DNA of 56,837 nucleotides, counting the filler, from Porpidia crustulata (Eukaryota), in NCBI GenBank assembly GCA_964255105.1. It is 4 parts of 4 records of this genome, joined end to end, with 100 filler letters (N's around TTAATTAATTAA, not from the genome) between each part and the next. Parts side by side here need not be neighbours in the genome. Positions count along the whole stretch, not along the records: positions 28,496 to 42,621 come from CAXUWE010000393.1; 3 more parts are not named here. One strand, given 5' to 3'. The position numbers were made by a program, and so were the translations under genes. Positions 28,396-53,585 of this stretch are shown here, piece by piece. How positions within the stretch are numbered: the stretch's first letter is position 1; every line of letters starts with the position of its first letter. The notes beneath the pieces were generated by a model. It was not told the origin of the DNA and searched no databases. It saw only the letters and a program-made list of their open reading frames with translations.

Positions 28396-28495
28396 NNNNN
28401 NNNNNNNNNNNNNNNNNNNNNNNNNNNNNNNNNNNNNNNTTAATTAATTAANNNNNNNNNNNNNNNNNNNNNNNNNNNNNNNNNNNNNNNNNNNN
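28396..28495. other. Artificial contig spacer
   Basis: N44-TTAATTAATTAA-N44. Confidence 0.98.
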
Positions 28496-28545
28496 TCATT
28501 TCGCTGCACAATCTTCAGCGAACTATGGTATACCGGATTGACTGC

Positions 28546-29091
28546 TTAATTCGCACCCCACAGATTAAGTGATTGATTGCTTTTCAAAACGGGATCGCGG
28601 TCGGCTCGACCCAGGCCGCTAATGTAGGCATGAGGCACGCTATCGACCTGCCATACCCAAGGTCCCAAAGCGGAGATAGACTTGAGCGTGCCTGCGTTTT
28701 CTGTATAGAGGAAGAGTCGAAACGGGACGTCGAAGCGCGGCCAGATGTCCGGAGACCGGAGGAACGAGAGCATGGAGTACCATACATGGCCGTTCCTGGG
28801 GTTTGGCATGGTGCCTGCAGCGGCCAGACACAATGTATGCAGACACGCATAGGCGCTGTAAAGCTTTAATTTCTGGATTTTCCATTGGTCATAGCAAGAC
28901 TTCGATTGCTGGGAGAAGATTATTGAAGCTGCGAGGGCGTGGGGCAAGCAGCCGTAAACATACCATAGAGACATCTTAGTTAGACGACACTCTCTAGCCA
29001 AATTTGTACTAGCGCAACCGAGCATGTGCGGAATCCAGGATTCGGGGACTCCCGCTTCGAGAAGAAACAGGCGAAGAAGATCGTCACGCAA
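28546..29091 (-). CDS. Possible hypothetical protein or gene fragment
   Basis: 181-aa ORF with protein-like composition, a non-ATG start and no recognised motif. Confidence 0.3.
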   Translation of the reverse strand: MRDDLLRLFLLEAGVPESWIPHMLGCASTNLARECRLTKMSLWYVYGCLPHALAASIIFSQQSKSCYDQWKIQKLKLYSAYACLHTLCLAAAGTMPNPRNGHVWYSMLSFLRSPDIWPRFDVPFRLFLYTENAGTLKSISALGPWVWQVDSVPHAYISGLGRADRDPVLKSNQSLNLWGAN

Positions 29092-30711
29092 ACAGTCAAG
29101 TCTCTATCGTCTGGAAAATCAATTCATAAGTTGGCGCAGAGGGCAGTACTGATTAAACTACTTCCAAGAACAAAATACATCGACTCAAGAGCCAAGATTA
29201 TTTACACCAAGACAAGCCGTTATTGCAGTGCATGAGGCTACGGCAGTCAGCAAGAAGCTTAGACCGCGAGGCCAAGAGCTGAAACATTATTTGCTCTGAG
29301 CACATGCCATTCTCCCACACATCTTCGATTTCGAGGAATACCTACAGAGTTTATCCAACGCTAGACAAACTAGAAGGAGAGTATTACGTGATTGTACCAC
29401 CAACGAAAAAATCCTGGGCGTGAGATGGCAGTTGGGTCTCTTTGTCCCAGCTAGCGTGTTCCTGATGAGTCCATCCATCATACATAAGGCGCACAGGGAA
29501 AGGATTTAAGGATTTGAAGAAACGGGAAAGATATCATATCGATACAGCAGTCGGTTGGGATGTCCTGAATCATCATCACACCATTTGCCCTATCACGCCC
29601 GGTTGCTCGAAGTAGATGGCCCAGCTTTGAGGACCCTCGATACAGCTCTATGCTATCAGAACTGTCCGTTGGAGGCCATAAACTCTGTTACACTCGAAGC
29701 CTTTACTCCGTTATAGCTCCGCAAGATTGGGGCCAGTACAATGCCTGTGGTACAAGGTCACACTCAAAGGGCGCAGATGCGACGGTATCAGCCTCCATTC
29801 TAGAGAACTGGCAGCTGATACCTATAACATTCCCGAGAAAGCGGTAGCAGCCTTTGGGCAAGGCATGGCGCGCACGCTGCGGCGAGCTGGACTTAGGTTC
29901 CTGCACGTCATGAGATGACAAAGCAAATGTCTTATGAGCACGAAGAGGTACGCTCAGGAAAAATGAGAAAATGAAGAGCTGAATGCTGGCATATCTATTC
30001 ATCATCGATATGGGTTTCGTCACAGACACCTCCAAGATCACTGCACACACCCGTCTAACTATCTTGAGCGATTTAGAGAATGCACATATCAAGGTGAGTT
30101 TTTAGGGTCTATCTCATGCAAAATAAGCGAATCACCCCACAGACACGACGTGTCGCATTATTATCTATCGAATGACGAAGTTACCTAAAGTTTTGGGGGC
30201 AGCATTGGCTGTCGCCTATCATCGCATTCGAAGTTACCTACTGTAGTATGCAATGGTTCTCCTACCTTCCTGGAAATGGAAAAGCGTCGTTCAATCGACC
30301 TCCGACCCGATTGGGTCCTGCATTGTTCATCAAGATTCGACCTCCATGTTCGAGCCACCTTGCCAATAACGTATCATGATTTTCGTAAATCATAGGCTTT
30401 AGGCTAGCATCTTGCAGAGGGTCCTACATCCTTCTTGGAAACATGGATGTACTGGCATACAAAGTAACCAACCATTGCGTTTCGCTTTCCTTCTGGAATG
30501 CATTGGCGTTCGTGTATGCTTCTGCAGGCAGAATCATGTCACGCAGAGCTGAGATGCATACCGTTGTACGGGCCGCTCATGCTTCCCTCTCCTGCGTCCG
30601 CCAGCTCAACGTTAATATCAGTATATATGGACTAGAAGTTAGACCTCTCTTATTTTCTCCGAATTTTTTCGTCTCCATTTGTGCCTTCTGAAATTCTCTG
30701 TGCGTCTCACC

Positions 30712-32204
30712 ATGTCTCCTCCTACTTCGGATCCGTATACTACGCCTGCTCTGAAGCCGCCAAAGGGTGTTACTCCCAATTTTGTCGATCCAGCTTCCAA
30801 AGGGTATATATGTATTATCGTCATGATCGTTTACCTCGTCATTACCACTCCCTTCGTCGTTATCAGGATATATACGAGACACTTCATCAACCGGCGACTA
30901 TGGTGGGATGATTGTATGCTCCCTTGATCAGTGGGCCAGATATCCAAATAAGCTAACATATCCACAGACACGTCTGTGATTGCCTGGGTATGTACCTATA
31001 TCTCGCAATAGTAATAATGGGATAAGAGGTTCTGAAACTTCCTTAGTGCGGTCTTGTTGGATTAACCACCATCATCTTCGATGCGCTTAATTATGGCATT
31101 GGCAAGGATATGTGGAACGTTAATGTGGCAGATGCTCAACGTTTCTCCGAGGTAATAGACTTATCCGTACGCTACAGAGGTAATGCTGACGATCACAGCA
31201 TTTCCATGATCTCGAGATCGTTGCGCGGCTCTCGATTTTCTTCGCCAAATTATCCATCCTGCTACTCTTTCTTCGAATTTTCGTGCCACCTGGTGCTCGG
31301 AAGGGCGGGATCTTTTACGCAACTTGGTTTGTTATCTGGTTCAATCTGCTGTACTGCATCGCTCTAGTCCTCGTGGTCCTCACGGAGTGTATCAACAAAC
31401 ATGCGGCCCGAGGAGCCACCTGCATCAACAGCTATCTTTTACTCGTCACCGCTTCCATCATCAACGTGCTCTCGGATCTTGTGATGTTGGTGATTCCTAT
31501 ATACGCGGTCTGGCATTTGCAAATGGCGAAGAAACGAAAGTTTGGCCTGACCATCGTTTTTGCCGTTGGGTCACTGTGAGTACCACGCTGCTCCGTTCTT
31601 GGAATGATCAAGCTGACTCCGCAACAGTGCTGTCGTTGCGAGCGCAGCGCGGCTTGGCTTCCAAGTTGTACAAGCTCATGACAAAAATCAGACCATTCTG
31701 TTGATGACAGTATCAATCTTAGCGTATGCACTATTTCAATTTGGACAACAATTTCCACAGTGGTGCTGACTTCTTCACAGTATTGCCGAGCAAGTTGTCG
31801 GGATCATCGTCGGCTGCATGCCGATCCTGCCAGCCTTCTTCCGACATATTTCTGGCCAAAAGACCCAGTCCGCCAAACCGAGCAATAACGGCTACATTAG
31901 TAGTTTCATCTCCAATCGCAAGTCCAGGCCATCCAAGGGCAGTGCAAACGATCCTTACCTCATTAGCAAGGATTACCAGGAGCTGGATGATTTGGAGAGC
32001 GGAGCCCACGATGCTAAGGGGACGACCACTACTGTGATCAAGGGTGGGCGAAGCGACACCTCAATTCAGGACACCATAGTCGAGGAGTTACAGGAGAACC
32101 CGACAAGCAATGCCGTGGTGTCGAAGTCAGTGCACGTGGAATCACATCCAAGGGCGATTGGAGAAGCCCGGACAGCGCCGTTGCCCGTGCATATCAGGAG
32201 GTGA
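30712..32204 (+). CDS. Rhodopsin-domain (PTH11-like) integral membrane protein, about 6 exons
   Basis: PALKPPKGVTPNFVDP, IRIYTRHFINRRLWWDD, YGIGKDMWNV, FAKLSILLLFLRIF, NVLSDLVMLVIPIYAVWHLQM..KFGL and AEQVVGIIVGCMP, joined by canonical introns. Confidence 0.9.
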
Positions 32205-32592
32205 ATGACTAACGGAGAGCCCGAACCCATTAAAGGCTAAGAGTAAATGAACAGGTCTACTTTTGATGGGAGCTCTGGAGACTAGCGTCTGGCGTTCGAG
32301 GAAAACCTGGGGGAAGATACCACATCCTCGGTTATACTGTTCTCTACCTCTATCCGGTCTCCTTCCTATTTGTTGTCGAGCAATGTATAATAATAACGAA
32401 ATTGTTCTTCGACATACGTTTACCCCCGACTTAAATTGTAGGGAAAATTGCCGTCGTATCATCACAAATAAGATTGTTCGACACCGATGCAAACTGCCTT
32501 TTGGTTGCACTCGTCGGTACTTCCCTTATCTCACCATCTTACTATGTGACTCTAGGTTGAGTTCTGTCTACCTGCGGCTGTTTGAGGGTAAG

Positions 32593-34150
32593 ATGGGCGT
32601 ACAAGATTCAGGACGTAGGCAAGCTCAACATTCTCCCGAGCATTTTCGATGGCATCGGTAAAACTTGGCTGAGATGTGGACAGTGAAGAAGGAGCATGCC
32701 GATTCAGTAAAGGAAAATGTCTGGAGGGTGATGAACCAGTGGACGAGGTAACGCATCTAACATCTGGGCAAGTAGTCAAGAAAAATACCTAACGTGATAT
32801 CTAGACGCTGGGAATCTCTCGTAGAAGATAGACTTCATTTCCTTGTGTAGTCCATCAAGGAAGACATCATAACCTTTCTCACCTGGATCTTGGACTGTTA
32901 TCCCCGAGTCGGAAGAGGAGAAGCTTGCATGAATGTTGGAGACTGGTGCAGGCCATATCGGAAGTCAGTTGGCCGCAGTCTGCACGCTCAATCAATGGAA
33001 GAGCTCGGTGATGTAAGATGGAAGACCCCGATACATTTACCCAATGTTGATGCTGATTCGTCCCAGTACATTAACAGCTATCTGACAAGAAAATACAATA
33101 TTAACACGGCCACGCGAGAGAAGTCGGTTATGAACGTTGATGACGTTTACGTCGTCCTTTATCGTCACTGGATTCCAGACACTCGGTCTTCCCGGACGAA
33201 CGACAGAGGCTATAGGTAACTCTTCTACTTCTTCTCTCTGCGTACGCAGCGACTAGGCCTGCTGCGCTAGTGTATACGATGGCCGACCGGAGAAAAACAA
33301 AAGAAGCACACCATTGGATGGGAGAACGACGATTGTGGCGACGCTGATCCAACGGATATTGGCTGGAAGGACATCAGGACTGTCTGTTACGAGGACGTGA
33401 ACACTTGTGATATCTCCGAACTCGGAAGGGAAACGACACGCCCTTGCAATGGAGGTAACTCTGAAGTATACGAAAGGATCAGGGAAGAAACCAAAGCCGT
33501 AAGTGGGTTTCCACAGGACCCAGTGCTGCGGTGCCAGTTATTTTCTCGCAAGAACTACGTACCCACTGAGGTTGACATTTCTGTCTTCGATCCAATCATT
33601 CTTTTGATCACCATAGTCTTTTTGGATGACGTATTCGAGGCCGAGATTACGTCAGTAGAAGATGGTTTCTACATGCAGGTCGGCGCATCGCGGCGCAGCT
33701 TAGAATTTCGTCGAGTGAAGACCCCCATCTTCCGGCAAGCTGAACGGACTGCGAACGGCATTGAGACATTGTCCATCCAAGCTTTACGATATTACACCTG
33801 TCTCCATTACCTCCAGCGGCCAAACCTCCAGGCAGAATTTTTGCAAATCCTTGATGCCTGTGCGATCCGAAGGGGTACTGATGAGGCAGTTGAAGGTAAG
33901 TGACGTTTACCTCATCCGAGTATCTGCAACGTGTTCTAATACCTCTCAGTAGCTGTGGCCCAAGTTCAGATTCAATAGGTTATGGGCCATAAAGACGCTG
34001 ATGTCTATCAAGCCTACATCAATCTACGTGTTTAGTGTGATGTATAAGTCGTCTTTCTCGATCGCTCTTCATCAAAAGCCATGTTCAAGATAGTCACAGA
34101 TATGAATCGTCACGTTGATCCTCGAACGCTCATAGATATCAGTCGAAAGA
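32593..34150 (+). pseudogene. DUF3435-type tyrosine recombinase (Starship captain), degraded and 3'-truncated
   Basis: Motifs read across frames: FLTWILD..LYRKSVGR; FPDERQRL*VTLLLLLSAYAATRPAALVY (33192-33275); LCYEDV; LAMEVTLKYTKGSGKKPKP; FDPIILLITIVFLDDVFEA; PIFRQAERT; CAIRRGT; Q*VMGHKDADVYQAYIN; MNRHVDPR. Multiple in-frame stops and frameshifts. Confidence 0.85.
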
Positions 34151-34189
34151 GATTCAGATTCTTAAAGTCGGCTTCAGTATTGTTCGCAT

Positions 34190-34510
34190 CTGGCTCTGAG
34201 CCAGAACATTCCACAAATCAGCTTAAGGCATGGGCTATGCTATGACAAGTGATAAAGAAACCTTCCGGCATGGAGCGACCGCATACCGGAACTCCAAGAA
34301 TTGGACGAAGGAAAAGCGAGACGAGTTCATTAAGGTTGCAAACGGGAGGGTGGTAGATCTGCACACAGCATCAGCATCTTTGGGCCACCACTTGACGCAG
34401 GGATGTCCACCTCGACAACCAGACTTGATGCGACAGAGTCTCAAACGTCAGCTGACGAGCTGGGTCTGGATGATCATGATGACATATCTGCGTCTTATAG
34501 CAAGCGCGTA
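34190..34510 (+). pseudogene. C-terminal fragment of a widespread fungal accessory protein
   Basis: PEHSTNQLKAWAM/TSDKETFRHGATAYRNSKNWTKEKRDEFIKVAN..SQTSADEL. A GCTAT duplication at ~34234-34243 frameshifts it; no 5' part is present. Confidence 0.6.
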
Positions 34511-34934
34511 AGAAGATGGCTTGGTGACGCAGAGGAAACGACAGGGCAGCAGTAGAAACAAAGCAGCGATTCCAATTGAACTTGAAATATAAGCGTAGTA
34601 ATGCGGTCTAAGAGACTATCCTTATTATAGAGCCAGAGATCCATGTCCCGTAAATTCACGAAGGCCGCAGTATTCTCTTCGAATGGAAGGATAAGCTCAC
34701 AATCCCCGATCTTGAAGTTCGGCGGTTATGCTAGCTTGCATTCACACTTAGGTGTACCGGTCGGTTGATAGGAGCATGTGTGACCGTAACGCTAGTCGTA
34801 GGCATGGACATCGATACCCCAAAGTTCTTTCACGTAGAAATTCGCTGTTGCTTCTTTGACCCTAGCTCTTGTGCCTGCCACAATATCTACAATAATGCTT
34901 CGGCGATTTTTCTCTGAACGATCCGGCGAGCCCG

Positions 34935-34979
34935 TCCGTAGCCTTCCATAATGAATATCCGTAGCCTTCCATAATGAAT
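34935..34979. repeat. 23-bp-period tandem duplication
   Basis: TCCGTAGCCTTCCATAATGAAT at 34935 and again at 34958. Confidence 0.95.
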
Positions 34980-35915
34980 GCCCAACCCATTGACGGAATG
35001 AATCTTCTGACTGATGGTCTCGTTGGCGAGTAGCTTCGGTGTTGGGCTCCCACATTCGCCATCGTCATAGGCCTGCTGTCCATTTCTTGTCCGTGGATAG
35101 TGGATTAAGACGCCTTATTTATCTCCAGTGGAAAATAAATATATCGAAGCGGGCGGATGGTTTCAACGCGTAGGGTAGTGACATCAGAAGATATGTAGCT
35201 TCAAGTGTTTAACAGGCTTGAAGGAGCGGAAAAGCGAAGACGAGATTAATGGACGAGACAATAAGAAATCTACGGCAACCTGCGTTTAAGATCATAGCCA
35301 AGCTCATGGGCTCGATGGAATACACCCAAAAGAGCATAATCACATGCAAGTCCCCGAGCAGGAGAGCGGTGACGCCCACGGAGAAGATGTCAGCAGCGGC
35401 GAATACTTTGATCACACCCGAATGTTAGCAAAAGCGAGAGAGGTTGTACGGAAGAGCCGAGGAAAGAAGAAGTACTGGTGCTAGAATCTAATTAGAAAGA
35501 GACGGAGGCTCTGGTGCTGCTCCTACGGTGAGGGAGGAGGGATTTGTGTAGAATGTGGGCATAATCGATGTTCAAAGTGTCTATTGTTAATCAATTGATC
35601 AAAGTTTCGAGATTCTTTGTTTCGGAGGATCGAAGCCGCACTAGAGCAGACATCCGATTGGAGGTGCATACGTTCCCAGCTCAAAGTTAAGCTCAAAACA
35701 CTTTGGAGTAAATTGGTCATTTCTGGCACCTTCGAATTGAAGCTTCATGGTGTCAAATAATGCATAGCGTTCAGCCTCATCTCCGCATAGGACATGCATC
35801 TGGCTAATGAGAAGGCTGATGTAGAAGCTGCTTCTTGATGTTCGACCAACAACACAAGCCAAAAAGCAGGAATCTTGGGGCCCTCTGATGTCGTCACGTC
35901 GATGGCGGTGGCTTT

Positions 35916-36690
35916 CTATCTGAGTGTCCGATTCCGTACAACAGGTAAATTGAGTTCAGCTAGTGATGGTAACCGAAGTAGACCATCTCTGGGTACAGTG
36001 CTGCTGTGTCGTATATGTGATTGAGATGGCATGGACGTCGATGGCATGGGCTGGTTGCTTGACAACGAGAAGGCCGTCACGCCGGCGCGACGGGCCATCT
36101 CGTGCTCACCTATCTGCCAGTGCATGGCTTCGGCTGCTTGCCATGGCAATGTCAGCTCCTCTGCGATCTTCGCCCACATATCTACTTTGAATCTAGATGA
36201 GGGAATCAGCCTTCTCTCGCACAAGATGGGATCTTGTGCCAAGTTTCTCGACATACTTTTCATATAACCTGGCGAGCTTATTCTTCCTACTCTCGTCCCA
36301 TTTCCTTCGTCGCTCAAGGTAGTTCTGGTAACGGAGGCGACAACTGATCGCGCTTCGACCTGGGAGCTGCTTGCTGATGTCCTCCCATTTCATACCATTG
36401 CCATGAAGCTTGATGATCTCCGTATCGTCTTTCTCTGACCACTTTGACTGCTTCTTGGCTATCGACTCCGACGGATAAGCTTGAGCATCGGAGACCCTCT
36501 TTGCTGGGATGGACGATGATACTGCGGCCAAATTGGTAAAGTGGTTTGCTTTCTCGGCCTTGGGCTTCAGCAACAGTGAGATATCCAGGGTGGCCGACGT
36601 TGAATGAGGGAATTGCTGGCTTGTCCGATGGAGGTAGCTCTTGTAGTCGAGTGGTCGCTTCTTCAGAATGCTCCTCAGCGTTTTGGTCAA
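35916..36690 (-). CDS. MYB/SANT-like DNA-binding protein
   Basis: KKQSKWSEKDDTEIIKLHGNGMKWEDISKQLPGRSAISCRLRYQNYL..WDESRKNKLARLYE, then an intron (~36256-36193), then FKVDMWAKIAEELTLPWQAAEAMHW. Start codon uncertain. Confidence 0.85.
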
Positions 36691-37073
36691 AGATTTCGGA
36701 ACCGCCTGCTTTAGTAATTGGAATGTGGTGAATTTCTCGTGTGCCCGAAGGTGTGAAAGTAATATTCACGTCTTCAAAAAGGGTAGTTGACGATCCGGCT
36801 GGCTCACATTACTACATTTCCTAGCTGCCATGAGCCACCACGGGACTATCAAGAACGATAATAGGAGGTGATGGGGCTTTCCGTTTCCCCATATTTGAGG
36901 TAGGTTTCGAATAGTAGCAAGGTGACCGAAACAATCAATTTTTAGGTTTTGAGATAAGGTGACTGCCAGGAATAGCCCTATGGCTCGGACAGGATACTTG
37001 AAATACATAAATCATCGACGAGGAATTAAAAGGCAACCAAGACGAACGAGGCAGAAACGATAGGTACAAATTA

Positions 37074-37620
37074 ATGGAGCAGGGACAAGGTGACCGGGCA
37101 ACATGTTGCCTGACAAGTAGTACGGTCGAAATCTCGTTGGGGGATATGATAATGATCGCTGACTTGAAATTGCTAACAGTACGTGACGAAATTGAGAGCA
37201 ACATTCAGGCCAGCGAAAGTATAATGGACGAAAGTGTGTGCCTGGACACAGATGACGAGACGGAACTACAAAACACCACGGAATTTGGGAAGACGAAGCC
37301 TCCTCCCCGTTCTTCACAAGTTGTAGTCTCGGCATTAAGAAGTAGCACGAGGATTGGAAGGAGCGGCACGAAGACTGCGGTCCTATACTCGACGGCGGGG
37401 CCATCAAGAACCAGATACTGGTGAAGGAAATGACTACAACGTCGCTGAAGCAAGAAAGTCTCAAGGAGAGATGGATCCGCAAGAACAAGCATTATATCGG
37501 TCTAGCACGCGAAGATCAGTATGACTGGGAAGAAAGCAAGGACAGACATCCATGCAGCAAAGTGGAGGTGTACGTGACACTCAAACGAACGTGGTCTCCC
37601 TCAGACGATCCTCCACTATG
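37074..37620 (+). pseudogene. Possible FHA/protein-kinase N-lobe relic
   Basis: ISLGDMIMIADL (FHA-like end), then IGRSGTKTAV..TRY/LVKEM..E (resembles subdomains I-III) with a frameshift at ~37420. Confidence 0.3.
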
Positions 37621-37792
37621 CTCTAAGAGATGCTCAAAATATTGTAGATTAAGCTTGAGCTGATTGAGCGGGCCATATTTCTCACGCTAATTTTCACTGC
37701 GTGAAAGATATGTGTCGCACAGTACGCGTCGCTTCCTAGAGAGGCACTGTGTGACATTTGTAACCATGTGCCTTTGCTCAGAGATTGATTAG

Positions 37793-40438
37793 TTGAGAGG
37801 ACCTTCAGCGAAGGATGAGGATGTTTCTCAGCTAGTACTCTCTCCTGCCACTGAGTCCAGCTTAGAAGTTCACCTAGAGACAATTCGTTTGCTGCTTTAG
37901 AAATCAAGGCGCCTGTCCAAGAACCTACCGTATACGCTGCGTCGTTGAAAGGTAGCTGGAATAGCCCGTCGAGAACGTACGGGGGCGATCTTCCGGCGAC
38001 AATTCGACCATGAGGCACCACGGGAAATGTTCGAGAAATTCAAAGCAAATCTTGGGGCGTTCTGGTGCCGGGAGACGGATGATTTGCCACCAAGTAATGA
38101 ACAACAAGCCGCACTACTTCAAGACTCCGTGTACTATGCGCTAAAGAGATATCTACACCTTGATCAAGGTGAAGCACATCAAATACTGGTTCGCAGGCCG
38201 AATCGTATCGTCGTTTAACTTTTGTCGGAGGTTCTCCCAGCCCGATACGATCCCGAAGTAATTGCGAGTTCCTTTCACGACGTATCATTGTTTACCGATT
38301 GATCTCAAGAGGAGCTTCAAAGACACATTGCTCAATTTCGTGATGCGGGAAATAGATACGTGAATCTAGCCTTTCAATTAGGAGGTATAGGAGCGACCTG
38401 GTGTCTCCCGTTGGAAGTAGCTCGCACAGCGTAAATCTTTCATGTTAGTGAAATACCACTGATACTGATCATTTTCTTTAGCTGGGAGAGATATCTCCCG
38501 AAAAGCGGTGAAGATTTTCAGAGCGCTATCAAACATCTCAAGTCGGCGGGAATAGCTGAGCAGTCACGCAACTATGATGATTTTGTTAAGCAGCTCATAT
38601 ACCTTCAAATCAAACGTAAGTCCTGCGCGCATTTTATTTCTCACTTCTCACTCATTCATTACAGCAATATTTGGAGACTCCCGATTACTGGAAACGTACT
38701 TGGGTCCTCCGAAGGAGATTGAGCCTTTGGTTCGGCTAGGCTCTCCCACTGCCGCTATTCGTTCCAATGCTTCAAACGCATTGGAAGAAGTATCTATCAG
38801 CCAGCAAGAATCTGCAACCGGCAGCTCGCCAGAGACAGCCATGATTTTGCTCTTTCATGCCATGGGCGGTCCCATCCCAAGGATCTTCTTTGATCTTGCG
38901 TCTTATACGCAACAACGATTTGACAAGGATGGCAAGCAATATGAAGTGACACCACACTACACAGCCCTTGATCAGGCTCTGGTCCATCTACTGGATGCAA
39001 CAAAATTGAGACAAAATATTGAGCACCTGATCTCGCGTTCCACGATCAGTGTACAAGGCACAGCTTATGTGTATCATGATGATTCTGCTCGAGACTTATT
39101 TGAGCGGTCTAGGGAATATTGGATCCGTCAAGCTTTCATGCTTTGCTGTTATGTTTTTCCACGCAGCTCAGGTACAAATCCCTTGTAAGTCGGGAATGCC
39201 TGTTTTTGTCTCGCTCAATAGATCGCTTATGTCGTCTAGGTCCTCTCCAGGTAAAGAGTTGCTAGTCGTGGTTCACAATATGTTGCGCGTATACGTGGAA
39301 AGTGGCTTGGAACTACCACGTTGCAATAACACAGTGGAGACTTTACTATCCGCATCCAAATTCGAGGGCCTGCGGGAGAGAGAGAATCTGCTCAGAATGG
39401 GGGCACATCTACAACCAGAGCCCCCAGAACCACATGTGCGTGCCGAGATTGTTTACCGGCTGAGTGTTACATTCCGCTCGAGGGCGCATATTGGACTCGG
39501 AGCGCATACTAAATGAGTTTCTTAACAGCCGAAGTTTGGAATCGAATCAGGAATTTCATAATATTCTTGGTCTTCTACATTTATCGCAAGCTAATAATCA
39601 AGCGTACCGTTTCGACTTCCGCGGGGCGCGTGAGGGAACTTGCAAATGGCATCCTTTGAGCGACAATCTCTCGGATTCTCAACTGCGTCTGCTGTGGGAC
39701 CAATTATGCTGCAATGGCCGGATTTTGAGAGGAGAAGGTCAGTTTGACGAAGCAAGGCTCTGCTTTGAAGGATGTCTGGCCACACCTGGCCTCCCCCAAC
39801 CCAAGCGATTTCTTATCATATTTCACCTTTCGGATCTATATTGTGAAGTGGACTACATGCAACGGAACAACCCTCAGCAGTTGACACAGCAATTGACATG
39901 CCTGGATATGGAGAGAGAGATCGTGCAAGGAGAAATCAAATGTATCAGGACGTTGGGCAAGCCTTCGAAGGGCTTGAGAAGACTACTTCTCTCCTTGGTT
40001 GAGATCGAAATCAGACAAGGCCACCTTGACAGGGCTGAATGCTCAATCAGTGAGCTTATGGATATCTATAGCAAGATTGATGAACCAGACGTTAATGACC
40101 GAGTTGGGCATGTGCGAACACTAATTGCCAGGGCGCGCATATCTCATCTATGTGAAGCGGAAATGCACTGGAATGCTGCCCTATTTCAGAATAGGGCCTA
40201 CAACCCTTTGGAAGAGGAAGTTTTCACCTGCGGAGTGATATATCTTTTCATTGCCCTTGTGCGCTTTCAACTTGGGGATGTTGATGCGTCGCAATCAATA
40301 TTCAAGAAAGCGACCGAGGTCATCTGTAAGAAGAGGCCCCAATTTCTCATGCCTGGTATTGGGACGTATTTGTTCGACTTTGTAAGATCAGAGTTGATGT
40401 CAAGGGCGGGCTGGGTACTACCGAAGATAGCTCAGTGA
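37793..40438 (+). pseudogene. NLR-like gene: unknown N-terminal domain, winged-helix-like region and TPR-like repeats; disrupted
   Basis: Multi-exon, with in-frame TAG and TGA upstream of MFEKFK. Contains AGNRYVNLAFQLGGIG..LP..WERYLPKSG, LLFHAMGGPIPRIFF..LDQALVHLL, and the TPR-like GRILRGEGQFDEARLCFE. Frameshift at ~39470-39490. Confidence 0.65.
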
Positions 40439-40859
40439 TTTTGAAACGTGATTTGTTCTGCGAAATATGAAGCGTATTCTCTCGTGTGCAGAGTTATACC
40501 ACCTGCTCGCCTCAGTTCTCAGACGTGCATCGTTAATCCTTCGGATTAGCTCTCTGTAGTTTCAGTCAGACGTGCGTTAACGTAAAGAAAAATCAAAATT
40601 CAAATTCACAGAACGACATTACAAAATCGTGAATTTCGATCGCAAAACAGTGTCATCGCGAAATATAATACACATTAACGTATGAACGAATTTATAATAA
40701 GAATTTACAACGCTGCAATATGTGCATCAGAGAATGTCATAAATCATTAACACTGACTAACTATATTCTTTTCCCCGCGCACGTCGCGTAAGCAAACAGT
40801 ATCGATTCTATTACACGATACATTCCGAAATCCGTTGAAAGACTGGGAAAAGCCCGAAC

Positions 40860-41696
40860 ATGGCAAAGCAAATCTTTGAGAGATTTGACGGAGGCGAGCT
40901 CACAGTGAATATGTTAGTTGAAGCAGCCCAGCTATTTAATGAAAACTATGGAGTCTGGGGAGAGGATCCGACAAATTCTGAGTCTCAACTAAAGCCAGGC
41001 AAGTTGAGGCTGATTTGCTCTGATCTCACACACTAACATAAAAATAGGAAGTCGCGTAAAGCTGACCAAGAACCGACTTCGAGCCCAATATCTACCCAGC
41101 AATGCCTTTTGCTCATATGTTAGAGTTACCGTCGAGAATCGTCTTGCAGGGAATGCCTTCGCCTGCCGTTGGACCTACCAAGATAAAATTGTGTGTTGGG
41201 TCACCCAGTTGGTTGTCCACAGCGACTTTCGGGAGCGTGGACTTGCGACCGGCCTTTTGAATCAGCTCAGGCAAGATAACGATTCTATTTACGGCCTCAT
41301 GAGTTCTCACCCTGCTGCCTGCCTAGCGGCTGCAAAAGCATTTGGAAGTAAGCGCAATGCGACACTCCTCTTTTTCACTTTGATACTAATGTTTGAATAT
41401 GTGGCATTAATACCGTCGCCGTTAGCTTCATTCGCGACAATGCAGAAGCCATCATGAAAGTATCGCCAATCAGCTACGTCAAAGATGCTGAACTCCGTGG
41501 AAGCCTTTTTGATCCCGAAGATATGAGTGGCGCCATTTCGTCTGTTTACACCAAGTTTTTTGTTGACCATACTGAACCACTTGAGGCTCTATCATGGGTG
41601 CGAGAAGGACTGGATTGGCCTCTTGGAGGATTGCTTGATGGCTACGAGTTTCTCCTCATGACTATGGTCCGACGTCGTGATCGATCGAGATCTTGA
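40860..41696 (+). CDS. GNAT-family N-acetyltransferase (second intron acceptor appears mutated)
   Basis: AAQLFNENYGVWG; VCWVTQLVVHSDFRERGLATGLL (acetyl-CoA motif A); SSHPAACLAAAKAFG; SPISYVKDAELRGSLF..FFVDHTEP..WPLGGLLDGYEF. Confidence 0.8.
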
Positions 41697-41912
41697 TCCT
41701 ATATCTGGGCGCCAGAGGCGTCCCCTGGTATTAGTGACGGTCACGAGTCTGCGGTCGATGTTTGGTCGCTAGGAGTCATAGTCTTTGAATGGCTACATGG
41801 CATTCCCACCGTCTCAACTGCTCAAGAGCTGGGGAAGGATGAAGAGCGTGTCAAGGCAAAGCAGTACTTTGCTTGGGTCGCAAAATGGATCGGGTGGCTT
41901 CACATCAAATGA
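41697..41912 (+). pseudogene. Ser/Thr protein kinase C-lobe fragment
   Basis: APE..SAVDVWSLGVIVFEWLHGIP (subdomains VIII-IX), with no upstream HRD or DFG. Confidence 0.75.
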
Positions 41913-42431
41913 TCAGGGTGATGGTCTATGAACGGACACAAATCCGTAATTCTCTGTAACAGTGATGTACGCTGGCTGGCTTCCAGAGCGAGCGTCTGCT
42001 AAATCTAGCCGGATACAAAGGAACAACTCAGAGTTCCAGAGATGGTCCCTCATTCATAACTTTGCGTAACCAACTATAAGGCGGGGGTAAAACGTAGTTT
42101 CGGGCAGTCTAGAGGACGAAGGTAAAGCGGGTAATGAAGAGCAGACAAGGCAGACTACTATCTAGCTCCCTATTTCTGTCGAGGTAAAGGTTGATGCGTG
42201 TCGCTTACCATGTGTGCGCAGGCTTGCCAGCCTAGTCATGCGTTTGTGACACCTATGAACTGACCTCAAGTTTTCTCCTAGAAGCTTTGGTACTGAGAAA
42301 GTGGCTCCAGTACAAGAATAAGAAGGGTAAAAAGCCGAGACAAATGGCCGCGAAAGCCTTTCGGTCAAGGTGGAATAGTCCCTGTTTTCTGCTCCTAAGG
42401 CTAGATATGGACATCCTTTCGCTTCTTAGCT

Positions 42432-42528
42432 TACTCGTTCCCACCCCCAAACGGTCCGCGCTAGTTAAGATTAGTCAATATAACCCTAACCCTAGGTAGG
42501 GCGGACCGTTTGGGGGTGGGAACGAGTA
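42432..42528. mobile_element. 93-bp MITE (Tc1/mariner-type) with 26-bp TIRs and TA target-site duplication
   Basis: TA-CTCGTTCCCACCCCCAAACGGTCCGC (42432-42459) and its perfect reverse complement (42501-42528). Confidence 0.8.
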
Positions 42529-42567
42529 GTGGCCACCGAGGACTGTTACTAAGCCAGTCTTCTTAGT

Positions 42568-42621
42568 TAACGTAATCTACCCCCTACTTAGCCAAACCCT
42601 CTAGTTGGCCAGCGCCCTACC
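42568..42621 (+). mobile_element. Probable left TIR of a pogo/Fot1-type (Tan1/Vader-like) element, cut by the contig end
   Basis: TA followed by ACGTAATC, then two internal sub-repeats CTACTTAGCCA and CTAGTTGGCCA. Confidence 0.5.
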
Positions 42622-42721
42622 NNNNNNNNNNNNNNNNNNNNNNNNNNNNNNNNNNNNNNNNNNNNTTAATTAATTAANNNNNNNNNNNNNNNNNNNNNNN
42701 NNNNNNNNNNNNNNNNNNNNN
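42622..42721. other. Artificial contig spacer
   Basis: N44-TTAATTAATTAA-N44. Confidence 0.98.
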
Positions 42722-43045
42722 GGATGATCTGGTGCGGTCATAGGGCGGGTTGGCGCGAGGGCGTGACTGGTCGGCTCTGGTGCGGGCGGGCGCCGGAGTG
42801 GCGATGGACGCGTGCCGGAACGGGGGGAGTTGGAGCGGACTGTCCGTGCGTGATGTCCTCCCCGAGAATTCGGCGTTGGGAGCGTAGGACGTGGCCGTCG
42901 CGGTAGCGTCAGCCGGGATGAGGGAGAAGCGCCAGAGATAGTAGGCGGCGATCATGAGGGCGAAGAAGAGGAGAACGACGAAGCATATCAGGACGTATCC
43001 ACCCGTGGCCGGGAAGTTCGACGCGCGGCGGTGGATGGACGGCAT
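42722..43045 (-). CDS. Small single-TM protein, 3'-truncated
   Basis: MPSIHRRASNFPATGGYVLICFVVLLFFALMIAAYYLWRF with GC-rich coding-like composition; runs into the spacer. Confidence 0.5.
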
Positions 43046-43584
43046 CGGAGACGCGAGACTTAAAGAACGCGGAGATGGGTATTTGATGCTACACAATTGT
43101 GGTGGCTGCATACGAGGCAGCCTGGTTCTGCTCTTTCTTCCGAGTTGCGTGCGAAAGGTTGAGAAATCATGACGAGAACGCTTGAGATGCGTCAGATGCA
43201 CCATGAGGTGGGGGATCCTGTGAATTGACCTTGGTAATCGGCGAAGCAAGTCTGATATGAATGGTTTCTTTGCAATTATGAATGGTCGACAGGGACTCAC
43301 GACGAGAAGAAGCGGTGAGAAAGTGAAGAACGCGAATGCTATACAAAAATATGAAATAGGCGAGTATTTTGAAGTTGGGCCGCTTTCCATTATTGCTCGC
43401 TTTACAATAATAGAGCTATTGTTCGCTGAACGAGAAGTCTTGAAGGTCTTCGGAGATAGCATTGTTCAGAACAAGCCTCTTTGCACAAGTATTTTGTATG
43501 TACATGCGTGGAGTAGTAAAAGCCATAACCTTCGCTAGTGCTGTGAAGACCTAGCTACGTACAAAAACTTAACCGGATAGGGTA

Positions 43585-45751
43585 TCATGTCAACATAGTG
43601 CGCTCGTTGGGGATTCTATTTCGAGTCTTGTCCTGCGACTCGCTGCTGCCACTTGACGAATGCGGTTTCGCTGCTGGCATATCTGCACTAGAGGCGCGTC
43701 TCGACATATTAGTCTCCGATTGTCTCTTCAGCTCCTTTTCTAAGGTGTTCGATAGTCTCTCAAGGACCCATTCGGCCTCTTCCACTTCTCCCATCAATGG
43801 ACTTCGATTACCCAGCCAACTCCATTGGCGATCTTCTTTGCCTTTGTCATCGCTTGCTGCCTGCTGGGTATCTGGCTCCTTATCTTCACCCCTCTCGATC
43901 TTGACAGGTGCCTTGCGATGAGAAGCATCTGAGTTCTCGTCTTCTCCCATCAATTTCAAGAACCAAGCCCATTCGTCGTAGGTGTATTTCCGGGGTGGCG
44001 ATTCATTGAGGTGCTTCAGTACGTTCCGAAATTCTTTCACAAGCAAGTAATGATACTCGTGAACGTCTTCTCCAAGCTTGTCCCCTGTGTCTTTGGCATG
44101 TTCGGCTGCTTTGAGTTCCGTCTGCTCGAGATTGCCAGCCAGTCGATCAGTAGCAGCTATCTTGGCGCCGCGGTTCTGTTTCTCGTTATCATCATCATTC
44201 TTCTCACCAAGGAAGCCGGGTGGCTCGTTCACGAATGGTATTTTGGCCTTGTCTTGAACAAACCTTGATGCTCCCTGTTTTAGTCGATCTTTGGTACTGC
44301 CCGCTCCTGGTAGCACCGTTATATCACCGAGATAGAGTGTGAGATCTCGAATGGCTTTCACCACGGTATCACCCATATTGCTGATCACGATCGTTAGCGC
44401 AGGGACGGCAAGCAGTGACCAGAAAACGAAGAACGGTTTGCCTGCATTGCTGTATGGCCTAAGGTCGCCGTATCCGATGGTCAATAGTGTGGTGTAAGCG
44501 AAATAGAGTCCCTCGAAATATGACCAGCCCTGATAGCGTTCTGCTCTCCAGAACACGACAGCCCCGATTAGCCAGAGCGTAAACCAAGCACCTCCAGAGA
44601 TGAACAGCGCATTCCATTTTTGTTTCCTAGAAGCTTGATCTTGAATCTGCCGCATGAGGTGGAACTCTTTCTTCCGTCTCTCGCGTTCCGACATCCCTGC
44701 CTCTGCAAATTCTTCCTTACTAGAGAGAGGTATGAGCTTCATTGCACCATCCTTCCCCTCCCTCTTATATATCTTCTTCAAAAGCCTTTCCCTCTTTTTT
44801 TCGATGGCCCGCATCCCAAGCTTTTTCTTCCCACGCTCTAACACAAGCGAGCGAATAGAGCCTATCACAAGGCCCAGAATGACAATACCACCAACTGCAA
44901 ATGGAAATAACAAGCTTCGTCCTAGATGCGTTCCTGGCGTGTAATCTCCAATACCGATGGTGAGTAGGGTAAAATTGGCAAAGTAAACTCCGTCCAAGAA
45001 TTTCCACCCCTCTATCTTGGCGTAGACAGCACCGCCTCCGACCATGTATACCATGAAGCTGATAGTCTGCAACATCAGGGTCCGCTGACTCATCGTAAGC
45101 TTGAATTCCATAGGGTATTCGCCTTTCAAAGCGCCGTATACAGTAAAAACCATCAGTGTTGCAATGATAAAGTACAGTGCAGCGGCTATAATAGCGTAAT
45201 AAAAGGCCTGCGTCAAGGCACGATTATCTCCAGGTGCGAGCTTTAAGCTGTAGGTCGCAGTCACGATGAGGGCAATGAGGAGGATCGATGCGATGTACCA
45301 GCCAACTATCGTGATTGATTGTGCAATTTTGAACGAAAGGCGACGTGCCATGTTGAGAAGGAGGGCCATATTCGCCGCCAATGCCAGTACGAGGGACACG
45401 GCATTGACAGCTATAAGCCAATGGGGGTCCTTGATGTTTGTTCCCCGCTCACCCTCATTTCCTCCCGGTGGTATCACCACTCTCCAATTGACTACCAAGG
45501 CACATACAGAGAAGGCGCTAGCTATAGGCCCAAAGGTACCTGCGAGAAGAGGGAATGCTGTAGAAGCAAACCACCACCGACTATGCCAACGGATTAGTTT
45601 CAAGGGCTTTGATATGGCTAAGGAGCAATGGGTACCTTGGGTCCAGGAACGTCTGTTCATCCTCGTCCTCAGCCTCCCTCTCCTCATCTTTCTCCTCCTC
45701 TACGCGGTCTGCGACCTTGCTGATGGGCTCATCAAGCCCCGGGTCATTCAT
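43585..45751 (-). CDS. TOK1: TOK-type two-pore outward-rectifier potassium channel
   Basis: Start MNDPGLDEPI, intron ~45636-45583, WWFASTAFPLLAGTFGP, and two P-loops LLTIGIGDY and LLTIGYGDL with 8-TM layout. Confidence 0.95.
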
Positions 45752-46365
45752 TGGCTTGATAGTTTGTGCAATCGCCGGTGCTTCAGCGTATATTTGTCAT
45801 TTGAAGAACCTAAACCGAAATCTGAGAGGACAATGAATCAATTATAAGGAGCAATGACACGATAGATCCTTTGACAAGATCTGCGAATGCCTCGTTCAGC
45901 AAAGGAAGCAGGTGACACCCACATCTCGGTTGTTTACATCCTACGGTGGATCACCAGGGTCTCCAATCCAGGTTTCCTTGGCGGGGAACAGGCATAAACG
46001 CCGCTAAAACCCTGTACGTCATTAGCACGAAAGAAATACCTGACGGCAGAATATCACAAGACGTGCATCCTGTCTTAATGGGCAGACTTGACTGTCCAAG
46101 TCTTGATGCTAGTCTCGAGAAGTGCAAGGAACTAGATACTTCTAGTCATGCCTCGGCTCACGACCAGAACGAAGAATTATGCTGCGCTCAGCGCAAAATG
46201 CTACGTAAAAACCCCTATCTAGCTTACCTAGAAAGGCTCCTGATGTCGCTAAAGGTTTGGTTGATAGAATCGAAGCAAGGGGGTATGTGAACAGGAATGG
46301 AAACATAAAGGGGTATGAGCGCGGTCCAAATACAAAGTAGAACTCCACCCTTTCCCTGTCTTCCC

Positions 46366-48213
46366 TCATCCTCTCCATCTCTTCATGGTATGCTCGCCGA
46401 CTCCCCTTCCTGCCCTCGCCATCCTTCCGTTCAGCCGGCTAGTCCTCCATCCCTCATACCATAGCTCCCTACTTGCCTCCCTCAGTTCTCCTCTCCATTC
46501 GTTGAAGACTGTATCCTTCAAGCGGAGGAAATCGCAGTGCTCGGCATTATAAGGATCCGCGAATCCCCACGGGAATTTTCGGCCTACGACATCTGGCTCA
46601 TAAATATCCGGGGAGATGATAGAAAGGGGAAGGACGGGGGTTTCGGTCGTTAAGCGTGGGTCCAGAGGTGTGGGATGCCTTTGAGCACCGGCTGTTTTGA
46701 TGGCAGGCTTTATAAGATCAAAGTCAGCTGCGGAGGACTGGCTGGTACCAGTCGAAGATGGCGATTCTAGTTGAGAAGTGCTTGATAGGTTCGCGTCAGA
46801 CAATTTGCGTGAATCATGAGGGTATTCGTTTTCTGCTGCAGCAGCAGCAGCAGCATCCTCGTCTTGCTCCTTGAGCTGATCGAAATCAGTTGTGATATCT
46901 GCTTCGCCATCGTCCAGGCCTAAAGCTCCGAAGGTGTCAAGGTTCGCTTTTTTGAGGGATGCCCACACGGTGCGCTTGAGATGCGCCATGTGAGCTGATG
47001 TAATGGTATCTGCTTTAGAGATTACGGGAATAACTGTTGTTTTGCCTTGCATCGTCCGCAACACCTGAAGGTCGAGGTTTTCATCTAGACCTTCTAGAGC
47101 AATCGAAGAGCGGGTGTCAAGGAAAGAATTGCCATTCTTGACAGCACCATTGGGCGCATTCAACCTCTTCGTGGCAGCGATATTGGCATCTAAGCGCGCG
47201 GGGTCGAGGACTAGGAACACACAGTGAATGTGGGTATCACGAACCCCAGGCGCGCGAACGACCTTGTTCTCTTCCGTAAATGTGTCTTCGAATTTGCTTT
47301 CGAGAAACGATGACATTTCGCGAAGCTGTAAATCGACAATGTTGGTCTCCAGGCCTTGAGAATCCCAAAGCGTCAACCCAATTCGTTCGCCTTCCATCTC
47401 AGTTTCAAGGTAATGTGAGGTGAAGTTTGGGAACGACTTCTCCGTGGAAGAACTGCGTATATTGAAGGAATCGTCTTGATTTGGCGACCTCTCCTTACCA
47501 GCTGGAAGAGCGAGAGATGTGCGGAGGAAATTGAGAAACGAAGTCTTGCCAGAATTGCGGGCGCCTATCACAAGTATACTGCGTCATAATCAGGTGGGTA
47601 CAGTAGGACGCTTACACGTTGATGCTTACTTGAACGGTGTGGGGTCCTTTCTTCTTCTTAGCCTCCTAGGACTGTTGATCCCACTGACCATGCTGCTCGC
47701 ATAACTATACCGGCCACGATTTGTCATACTTTCGGTCCTAGCATATGGATCGACAGGATTGCGCGACGAAACGGGTGGCACAGGAGGGATCGGTACATCA
47801 TGATATCGTCGTGAGCTCGACGTGTCCATTGAATCCCTCAGAACAGATTTGTCCGGATCGAATTTACCCATTTTGTTTGACATGATAGCAAGACTATCTG
47901 GTCGTGCATCCTCACCACCGAACGTCTGCAACTGTGGGGCACGTGGAACGTCTGGAATCATTGGTGGTTGACCTGGTATTTGTTCCCTTTGCATCTCTTG
48001 CTCCCTAGCTAGTATTCTTTGCTTCTTGCTCAACTTTCCACTCGAGACACTTCTTACTGACGATACTCGGTCCCCCGACTTAGCGCGGCGAAGGAAACTG
48101 AACGAGCCGCGGCGGCGAGGGTAGTGTTGCCCGTCTTGACTTTCATTGATAGGTTGAAGTTGAGTGTCCCCATTGCTCGGAGTTCGAGCGCGTGGATTGG
48201 AAGGTGAGACCAT
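46366..48213 (-). CDS. Non-core septin (possibly AspE/group 5-like)
   Basis: Polybasic RRLRRRKDPTPF, intron, G1 GARNSGKTS, G3 LWDSQG, DTHIHCVF, G4 SKAD, septin unique element GRKFPWG..HCDF. No C-terminal coiled coil. Confidence 0.88.
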
Positions 48214-49055
48214 GTTGAACAGAAAGAGCGAACGAAGCTATGCGTGTTGAGATTTGCCGATTCAACACTTCAGGGAGGCAGCATCCGCGACCATACAATC
48301 TCGTCGCAGGTTTCTTTTGACGGCCAGCCGTATACTTGATCAGCTAACCGGGTTGCCAACTTGTCCGACGTCCACACTTAACAGCAAAGATCAGAATGCG
48401 CTCTAAGAGTACTAGACTGCTTACGGATCTCCGACTGGAGATTTCCTAGAACAGACGCAGACTCGAAACAATGTCGGCTCCCTGGCGCGAAAGGCAGTGC
48501 GAAGATCGTGCGTGCAGGCGAGAACGCGTCCGATCTCAAATGTCATTGACGCCGTTTTATGAGGTCTTCTCCTTTCTTGTACCTTATTTACTCCATAGAT
48601 CCCAGCGGGCTCCTTAGCCGGACACTACGAAAGTTTAGGCGATCTAAATATGCATTACCCATCGATACCGAATATATACCGGCCTTAGTTTATCCCGTGG
48701 GCTTGATTTGATAAATGGCGCTTAATACACATGAAGTTTCAACGTGAATGACAGTTGGAAGAGTTTCATTGCAGCTGAATGAGATGCGGTCAGATCAAGA
48801 TTCGTCAATGTTGACGGTAAATGCAATCCTTCAATTTCAAAATATACACATTTGAAGCATGACTCGACTAGTGATTACCTCAGGTATTTGTATGTATCGA
48901 TTCCCAAATATGAAACGCCTAAAGTACCTTAGCACCGTGGCACTTTAGGTCCACACGTCCAGAAGCTCCCCATTGAGCTAGCTTACAATTTTCTTAGGTC
49001 AGGGCCAAAGCTCGCTAGTCACCTGTCTACCCAAAGAACGACTACAAGGATTCTT

Positions 49056-51079: not shown

Positions 51080-51342
51080 TACCGGCCAATAACGACCCCC
51101 CGTCTCGACAGCCCGCCAACTATTGATGATGTTGAAGACAACGATATTCTCAACGGTGCTATGCCATATGCCAGTGAGGGAATAAATAGAAATAGGAAAT
51201 CGCACTGAATGGAGCCCTTGCTCCAATCAATCACACGGTAATAGTTGTCCCAGAGCCAGATGGAAACATGATTATGTTTGATTAAATAGAGAATGCTCGT
51301 ATACATGTAATAAGTTAGATATGAACAGACAGGAGAAACGGC

Positions 51343-52488: not shown

Positions 52489-53585
52489 GATTTCCGTCGT
52501 GAGCCACAACGGTGGAGTACTGTCACAAACGAAATGCCCTCATGATGCTGAGGCATCGACTCCTTATGACCTTGGGCCATGACCTCGGCGGTGGAATGAG
52601 GTACGGCTGCCATAGAACACGCTGTACTTACCACGGTAGTGATTGGATGTGGAAACTAGGCGCAATGGGGTTCCTGCCAGGACGAGATACGGGAACAAGC
52701 ATCTCCTCCTCCGAAGGCTCGGATGATAGGTAAGATGCAAATCATCCTCTACAGGCTTTCCAAACGAATCAGCGTGACACATGGATAGCTGAAGACGATC
52801 GCCGGGCGACTGTCGATATCAGGTGGACGTCCGTGCCGGTTCTATAATAAACGTGCAGTTGATGCCGACCTCGAGTGGCTACCCCACGATCTGCAACGCT
52901 ATGACAGGATAGCGCAGCATGGATCTCCTGCAGTAGATTCGGATGCTTCCTTGATGCTTGCGAGTTGCGACCTTCCCCATCTGAAGGACATACGTGTTCT
53001 CTCCATCGTCGACCAGTCACGCCGACTAAGGTACGGTCTGATCATCAAAAAGTCACTTGCAAACTGTATCTCAACCTGCGAATAGCATATTCTGAATAAT
53101 TAGACCTCCCAAATAAATATAGCATTGCGCCAAAGAAGATGTCCGGTCGTCCTCCAAACCTCGTTTAACTCGTATACCATTAGAACCAATGGAAGATAGA
53201 GTAGGCTTTAACATTTTCAAGCCATCATCCATAGCCTGCGAATATACAACGTATCCGGGGAATCAATTGTTAATACGTGACGTTTGACTATACTCAAGTC
53301 GACATCGTTTATGATCAGTATATCTGTTTTAAATTCTAGTATGTTTTCCCTCTGAATCAATAATGATCTGAATATATGAGTCGAAAGACAGATAGATAGA
53401 TGAGTAATTGATTAGATGCTTAAGCAGATGCTTGAGCACGTAATTGAGTAATTGATCAAACAGGTGAAAATTTGCTGAGTTAGGAGCCGGATGTTCTGAC
53501 ATTGAAAATCAGACGTTAGCAGGGGGGCTAAGCGAGTGTACTAACAGTTGTTCCCCCGGATACCGTAGTATGTAGCTGGTCTAGC

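Follow-up and report, generated by a model that had tools for sequence, protein, structure and literature searches.

A Decayed Captain-Type Recombinase Gene, Probably the Relic of an Eroded Starship, in the Lichen-Forming Fungus Porpidia crustulata

Results

A recombinase pseudogene related to Starship captains

The window analyzed here is a stretch of 56,837 nt, filler included, from Porpidia crustulata (assembly GCA_964255105.1), in which four parts of four records are joined end to end; positions 28,496 to 42,621 come from CAXUWE010000393.1, and parts that stand side by side need not be neighbors in the genome. On sequence grounds, positions 32593–34190 of its plus strand are certainly a pseudogene of a tyrosine recombinase of the DUF3435, or Starship captain, type, in a host that is a lichen-forming lecanoromycete. 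A living captain enzyme breaks and rejoins DNA by means of a catalytic tyrosine, mobilizing the element that the captain gene heads. The features of the locus are collected in Table 1.

Three lines of evidence identify the gene. The open reading frame (ORF) at 33271–33903 (210 aa), the longest of 10 ORF pieces and the only one long enough for scoring, matches Pfam PF11917 (DUF3435) at 42 bits (cut-off 25.8; E = 7.8e-11), covering profile positions 101–209 of 418. A search of a 5.8-billion-protein collection returned 372 candidates, three of which (P0001, P0002 and P0003) passed a threshold of E ≤ 0.001, and PF11917 is present in all three. P0001 is a partial protein of 640 aa from Exophiala xenobiotica, and P0003 is protein 223650 of Lindgomyces ingoldianus, 712 aa long. 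When P0003 was compared with the window by tblastn, a single alignment was obtained, pairing 32593–34167 with residues 1–459 (E = 9e-99) and the ATG at 32593 with Met1. Finally, we used a frameshift-tolerant script in which intron-free DNA is aligned to the homologue proteins and frame changes are allowed. Residues 1–467 of P0003 align along 32593–34190 with 280 of 454 codons identical (61.7%); the corresponding values are 235 of 383 (61.4%) for P0001 and 190 of 307 (61.9%) for P0002. By all three measures (PF11917, tblastn and frameshift-aware alignment), the homology of the relic is to be placed far above chance.

An initial annotation of this locus had proposed a dead captain at 32593–34150, reassembled from motifs scattered over several frames, and both the family and the loss of function are borne out by these searches. 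Its motifs are present on the plus strand: FPDERQRL followed by a stop (33186–33215), SAYAATRP, EVTLKYTKG in another frame, PIFR, AIRRG, VMGH and YQAY. The exception is LCYEDV, which is the form found in the homologues; the window itself reads TVCYEDV. The proposed start coincides with the ATG opposite Met1 of P0003, whereas the proposed end falls slightly short, since similarity to the homologues reaches about 34170–34190.

Table 1. Features at and around the recombinase pseudogene (window coordinates).
Feature	Position	Strand	Remarks
Spacer, PTH11-like gene to captain start	32205..32592		388 nt; possible site of any left end, none recognizable
DUF3435 / Starship captain-type recombinase pseudogene, putative Phoenix-family relative	32593..34190	+	corresponds to residues 1–467 of 712-aa homologue
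Intron 1 of pseudogene	32748..32804	+	57 nt, GT..AG; alignment restored once removed
Intron 2 of pseudogene	33013..33066	+	54 nt, GTAAGA..CAG
Intron 3 of pseudogene	33896..33949	+	54 nt, GTAAGT..CAG, phase 1
No recognizable gene	34191..35918		without the missing captain C-terminal third
Myb/SANT gene	35919..36765	-	convergent with captain; two exons, ~36612–36253 and 36194–35952
TPR-family gene	38829..40438	+	55-nt intron 39185–39239; true frameshift ~39478–39481
GNAT-type acetyltransferase gene	41014..41693	+	two ORFs, probably intron-joined
Protein kinase scrap	41697..41909	+	C-lobe only (APE to DVWSLG); Pfam Pkinase
Dispersed repeat with 43-nt palindrome	42316..42621		palindrome arms 42432–42474 / 42486–42528; right limit of non-syntenic stretch
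Small membrane protein, Pro-rich tail	42722..43057	-	first gene of syntenic block; outer limit for any element

Decay and truncation of the recombinase gene

Part of the frame disorder is due to three short GT..AG introns. Six in-frame stops still interrupt the gene, at 32659 (TAA), 32848 (TAG), 33213, 33976, 34033 and 34045; the last four had been listed in the initial annotation, and all four hold. Opposite five of the six, P0003 has Gln, so that CAA or CAG has become TAA or TAG, a C-to-T change at CpA, which is the context of repeat-induced point mutation (RIP). In addition the frame changes at least six times, near 32908, 32943, 33181, 33306, 33403 and 33491; a seventh, weak change lies near 34138.

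The relic retains the motif order of its homologues (ATRP, LKYTKG, x-x-I-R-R-G, VMGH, YQAY), and in the alignment it preserves the ATRP arginine, the LKYTKG lysine, the AIRRG arginine, the VMGH histidine and the YQAY tyrosine. At the central box the window reads C-A-I-R and the three homologues Y-[A/V/L]-I-R, the Tyr of Y-x-x-R thus being replaced by Cys. Y-x-x-R takes the place of the usual H-x-x-R in Starship recombinase clades 1 and 3 (PMC11162782). If the catalytic residues are taken from the description in that paper (R, K, H/Y, R, H/W, Y), the active site would have lost one of its six positions.

The gene also stops short. The DUF3435 domain of P0003 spans residues 148–594 and the relic ends at about residue 467, so that about 127 domain residues are gone. 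Residues 456–712 of P0003 were not detected on either strand of 34151–36000 by frameshift-tolerant local alignment, where scores of 37 and 48 compare with shuffled means of 45.8 (standard deviation 4.7) and 44.5 (standard deviation 3.3), from 12 shuffles each. Hence the gene was cut off as well as mutated and, with its 3′ third leaving no trace downstream, its physical continuity with the DNA that follows has been broken. In place of an open, complete reading frame, 32593–34190 holds six nonsense codons, at least six frame changes and a Cys for Tyr, and it lacks residues 468–712, the C-terminal third; such a copy is incapable of function.

These lesions are not an assembler artifact. An independent assembly of the single public run that contains this DNA, probably the source sample, yielded a 10,749-nt contig covering 30606–41354 with no differences and a flat depth of 11.2; errors in the reads themselves are still possible, as both assemblies perhaps used the same reads. 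The depth equals that of the surroundings, and the region is single-copy and contiguous. A mild RIP-like trace lies over the captain, where the CpA+TpG index falls to 1.09 from a window-wide 1.25; of the 29 bins of 2 kb, the two lowest are 32001–34000 (1.04) and 42001–44000 (1.03). Strong RIP was ruled out, GC content being flat and the dip over the captain only mild.

Relationship to the Phoenix family

The nearest named homologue of the relic has already been classified. P0003 is lining1_223650, to which the Starship classification of Gluck-Thaler and Vogan (2024; PMC11162782) gives the entry ‘tyr’ in Table S3 and fam01 in Table S4; the Phoenix captain is likewise fam01 there, and Phoenix is family number 1, clade 1 in Table 1. 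According to the same source, captains of one family have a median identity of 35.4% (75th percentile 43.6%) and those of different families 25.8%; the identity of 62% to P0003 exceeds that percentile and fits membership in the same family. The recombinase may thus belong to the Phoenix family or stand very near it, a label carried over from P0003. With lining1_223650 the relic shares the DUF3435 domain and its 61.7% identity, counted from Met1, a Y-x-x-R-type central box (Y-A-I-R in P0003, C-A-I-R here) and the same succession of R, K, R, H and Y motifs. It differs in being dead and truncated. The hosts differ as well, in that the closest named relatives of this lecanoromycete's relic come from one Dothideomycete and one Eurotiomycete.

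Dead captains have precedents. The Wallaby captain carries many premature stops (PMC11162782), and the Tangerine captain of Xanthoria parietina, 283 aa long, is without active sites 1 and 2 (PMC13486527). Like the relic, these are captain-type genes that are non-functional yet still in the genome, and X. parietina is, as here, a lichen-forming lecanoromycete. Unlike the relic, both stand at the head of elements whose boundaries and cargo have been mapped. The CB domain is missing from most captains of the Tangerine family (PMC13486527), whereas the relic keeps residues 1–147 upstream of DUF3435, the expected site of that DNA-binding domain. The lichen-fungus survey in which Tangerine is described counts 1,508 recombinases in 554 genomes and places Phoenix and Galactica types in Xanthoria (PMC13486527).

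More generally, 559 bounded elements stand beside 10,212 ‘solo’ recombinases, many of them thought to be pseudogenes (PMC11162782). Pseudogenized and solo captains are already the majority class, and the relic adds one further case. The same numbers speak for a reading in which the captain fragment stands alone, as a solo gene or a scrap of ectopic recombination, and the genes that follow it are native, lineage-specific genes decaying at a rearrangement-prone junction. What lies behind the captain bears directly on that reading.

Genes behind the captain

No gene could be recognized immediately downstream of the relic. ORFs in 34191–35918 gave no credible Pfam match, only a weak one to TMEM190 (E = 0.048) that lies far under the cut-off. 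This gene-less stretch contains, at 34935–34979, a perfect 22-nt tandem duplication (TCCGTAGCCTTCCATAATGAAT), its two copies 1 nt apart.

The first gene encountered is a Myb/SANT gene transcribed towards the captain. It matches Pfam Myb_DNA-binding (E = 3e-11) and is also matched by tblastn of P0125, its nearest homologue. The ORF lacks internal stops, and upstream of the domain it has no in-frame Met. Of the 65 positions of its first repeat, 11 differ from P0125; P0125 itself differs from Aspergillus and Talaromyces (Eurotiomycete) proteins at only 4–5 positions of this repeat. Six homologues agree in 54 invariant columns, and the window copy departs from 6 of these. The second piece is well preserved (3 of 33 positions differ), and the gene is fast-evolving in its first repeat. 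Myb homologues appear to be present about once per species in many Pezizomycotina, the pattern of a core gene. A Myb search for locus-tag synteny gave no match from the genomes that supplied K+ channel relatives; as it covered only proteins of at least 334 aa, it carries little weight. Further along, the ORF at 37626–38039 had no usable atlas match.

The TPR-family gene aligns to P0246 in three frames. The first frame switch is the 55-nt intron, and the second leaves no room for an intron and is therefore a true frameshift. The family is small, with 301 representatives at E ≤ 0.001 among 1.84 billion, and its best named relatives are in Clathrospora (57%) and Zopfia (50%), both Dothideomycetes, and in the lichen fungus Protoblastenia (50%). 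Just 3′ of the gene, a second contig assembled from the public run has two extra nucleotides (GC) at 40536, at about half the summed depth, perhaps because strains or alleles in the sample differ.

The GNAT-type acetyltransferase gene looks whole; it matches Pfam Acetyltransf_1 with E = 3.2e-4 and 21.4 bits against a cut-off of 20.7, and its atlas look-alikes are GNAT clusters (score 0.94). After a single stop codon, and in the same frame, it is followed by the kinase scrap (window 41694–41909), which covers positions 165–212 of 263 of the Pkinase profile (E = 5e-5, 23.3 bits, under the cut-off of 31.7). A kinase N-lobe was found nowhere upstream of the scrap.

Four decaying or scrap genes thus lie directly behind the captain, in the direction in which cargo would be expected. 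If the captain fragment stood alone, their presence there would have to be coincidental. The best named relatives of the TPR gene, Dothideomycetes rather than the lichen fungus, also show the patchy pattern typical of accessory genes and tell against an entirely native set.

Starship auxiliary genes belong to the DUF3723, FRE, PLP and NLR families, with MYB/SANT genes on the distal edge. None of the 103 ORFs in 34.1–43.9 kb matched DUF3723, patatin, ferric reductase or NACHT in Pfam searches.

The dispersed repeat on the right

The non-syntenic stretch ends on its right at a dispersed repeat. Assembled contigs sum to a depth of 161.5 over it, compared with about 11 on either side, dozens of them have an end in it, and its TpA/ApT ratio is 2.41. 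The loop of its palindrome contains CCCTAACCCTA, which is telomere-repeat-like. It could be an element of the host fungus resembling a miniature inverted-repeat transposable element. The repeat runs into an N mask at 42622. The N masks of the window (14149–14248, 28396–28495 and 42622–42721) consist of three pairs of 44-N at a spacing of about 14.2 kb and are not biological; the third hides the junction of the dispersed repeat with the first syntenic gene.

Gene order and related loci

To the right of the third mask, Pfam searches of stop-to-stop ORFs identified a K+ channel, a septin, an amidase scrap, Vps62 and annexin. The K+ channel ORF (704 aa, 43588–45699, minus strand) has closest relatives at 83–89% identity; named matches at 66–69% are Lecanoromycetes, Teloschistales included (among them Loekoesia, Variospora, Teloschistes, Xanthoria, Letharia). 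Scanning metagenome contigs with this protein gave nine loci of relatives, at 84–85% protein identity. Positions 43527–56835 are colinear with all nine at 75–78% DNA identity, as far as the loci extend: K+ channel, septin, Vps62 and annexin are all found in six, and K+ channel and septin only in the shorter L002, L003 and L007. The small membrane protein gene, which runs into the third N mask, is 33% identical to the neighbor of the K+ channel gene in the relatives (117 aligned positions, 110 query residues), and DNA identity at 42927–43328 is about 60%. Because relatives keep the genes from about 42.7 kb rightwards intact and in synteny, these are conserved chromosome rather than cargo, and at most about 10.5 kb (32.2–42.7 kb) is left for any element.

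Beyond the conserved block the correspondence ends. In five loci, the 8–10 kb of the relatives on that side gave no match to the window at E ≤ 1e-6, and six captain, Myb and TPR query proteins found nothing in the nine loci. The junction of the relatives (L004:14100–21992, and likewise in L003, L005, L008 and L009) also lacks Pfam matches (0 of 36 ORFs of at least 80 aa), and the site beside the conserved block thus appears to be variable or gene-poor across the whole group. That the relatives too have some 8 kb of variable DNA without Pfam matches here suits a captain fragment dropped among native genes. Since the relatives' flank is also without the left block of the window, gene order differs and there is no empty site. 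The empty site anticipated beside the PTH11-like gene was not found in any of the nine loci, and in the one public run with this DNA no joint skipping the region was found. The related claim that the decayed genes downstream are cargo survives in part: about 8.5 kb holds genes that show signs of decay and are missing at this site in relatives, whereas everything from about 42.7 kb on is syntenic, intact and core.

Two side observations concern the block itself. The gap between septin and Vps62 (48305–51342) holds about 2 kb of extra DNA relative to the spacing of about 1.1 kb in relatives, including the amidase scrap (ORF 49788–50162, Pfam Amidase positions 123–209 of 445), and is a second decayed insert in an otherwise syntenic block. 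In P0037 of Blastenia crenularia (1221 aa), septin and K+ channel domains are fused in one gene model; this is probably a mis-merged annotation, the two genes being adjacent in Teloschistaceae too.

On the left of the relic, Pfam matches among the ORFs comprise P450, Ctf8, an HPPD-like dioxygenase, RabGAP, PTH11-like proteins (Fung_rhodopsin), OBG GTPase and UBC. The second PTH11-like gene ends at 32204 and is faced by the 5′ end of the captain. Placing the captain at the head of an accessory region, as had been proposed, is right in this orientation, but the missing 3′ third interrupts its continuity with that region.

Candidate element boundaries

In described Starships the 5′ end of the captain faces outwards, and the upstream boundary usually lies within 2 kb of the captain start (PMC11162782). 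Here that end faces left, outwards, across the spacer. The spacer has a RIP-like dinucleotide bias (TpA/ApT 1.16, CpA+TpG index 0.78), measured over a length of only 388 nt, and contains TTTAC once and TTTACA not at all.

The best candidate for paired ends was an imperfect inverted repeat of 19–20 nt at 32415–32433 and 42077–42096 that begins with TTTAC; the Phoenix direct repeat is TTTACA (PMC11162782, Table S1). Its score of 13.5 was reached by 17 of 300 shuffles and by 17 of 113 real 388-nt segments of the window. Given this chance-level score, and with TTTAC expected about 0.3 times in a spacer of this length, the repeat was rejected as a boundary. The best direct repeat at the ends scored 10.5, under the null mean of 11.7, and no repeats common to both candidate border zones were found, whether there, elsewhere in the window or in relatives.

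Known Starship target types are 5S rDNA and, for Phoenix, AT-rich or transposable-element sequence. As targets, 5S rDNA and tRNA genes were excluded, with no matches to Rfam and none by ARAGORN in the whole window; GC content is flat at 0.45–0.50, and a dispersed repeat is present at the far end only. The left end that had been proposed between 32204 and 32593 therefore cannot be placed: the inverted repeat is at chance level, and neither a direct repeat nor a 5S or tRNA target marks the site.

These results bear on the proposal that a bounded, dead Starship lies here, a miniature of about 10 kb with its left end at 32204–32593, its right end at about 42.1–42.7 kb and the decayed genes between them as cargo. 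The outward-facing captain, the absence of the stretch from the relatives' flanks, its end at a dispersed repeat and the TTTAC start of the inverted repeat are all as such an element would have them. So is the Myb/SANT gene, which is downstream of the captain and transcribed towards it, the convergent arrangement of captain and MYB/SANT that is found in 23% of Starship-like regions (O'Donnell et al., 2025; PMC12256816). Several features do not agree. In those regions the Myb gene is at the far edge of large elements, whereas here 2 kb separate it from the point where the captain breaks off. The space available amounts to no more than 10.5 kb, and the smallest Starship reported in PMC11162782 measures 15,020 bp, so that the layout fits in orientation and fails in size and in the missing captain 3′ end. 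The truncation at 34.19 kb implies a deletion or rearrangement between the captain and the rest, the inverted repeat does not exceed chance, and none of the 103 ORFs matched DUF3723, patatin, ferric reductase or NACHT. We consider a bounded Starship unlikely. More improbable still is its most specific version, in which 32.4–42.1 kb would be a mini-Starship collapsed to about 9.7 kb, comprising captain, convergent Myb/SANT gene and three cargo genes between TTTAC-initiated inverted ends at a synteny junction.

Discussion

The locus is probably an eroded Starship relic, an element that can no longer be delimited and whose neighboring genes are perhaps in part its former cargo. The outward-facing 5′ end of the captain, the decaying non-syntenic stretch behind it and the convergent Myb/SANT gene together fit a Starship remnant. 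With no end repeat, no empty site, no captain tail, at most 10.5 kb of sequence and unequal decay along it, no element can be delimited. On this account the captain gene would mark an old insertion that has since eroded until its ends are no longer recognizable. At most 10.5 kb of non-syntenic DNA (32.2–42.7 kb) would survive from it, and some of the genes there (Myb, the TPR pseudogene, GNAT and the kinase scrap) may once have been cargo.

Several observations weigh against an eroded Starship. Neither border carries a direct or inverted repeat above chance. None of the nine related loci offers an empty site, and rearrangement without insertion could explain the lack of synteny. Across 32.4–42.1 kb there is no strong RIP and no GC shift. 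The Phoenix label is borrowed from a homologue. The Myb copy is closest to P0125, with which it has lineage-specific residues in common, as would be expected of a native gene. Finally, the captain has accumulated twelve or more lesions in 1.6 kb and the TPR gene only one, an unequal load which means that the two have not been neutral for equal times. The last two observations are also what a captain fragment lying by itself among native genes would predict. Set against the run of decaying genes in the cargo direction and the accessory-like distribution of the TPR family, they leave that explanation improbable, somewhat more so than a bounded Starship and less so than the collapsed mini-Starship.

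The relic is real but ordinary and does not by itself alter the picture, dead and solo captains being the majority class. To the lichen-forming fungi, surveyed only recently (PMC13486527), it adds a further dated-looking scar of Starship activity. Were the mini-Starship to prove true after all, no smaller Starship-derived unit would be on record, and it would indicate that these giants can shrink to a captain-plus-Myb core. The position of the relic may be of more general use: it sits where gene order diverges from that of related lichen fungi and could serve as a marker for asking whether Starships seed breaks in synteny.

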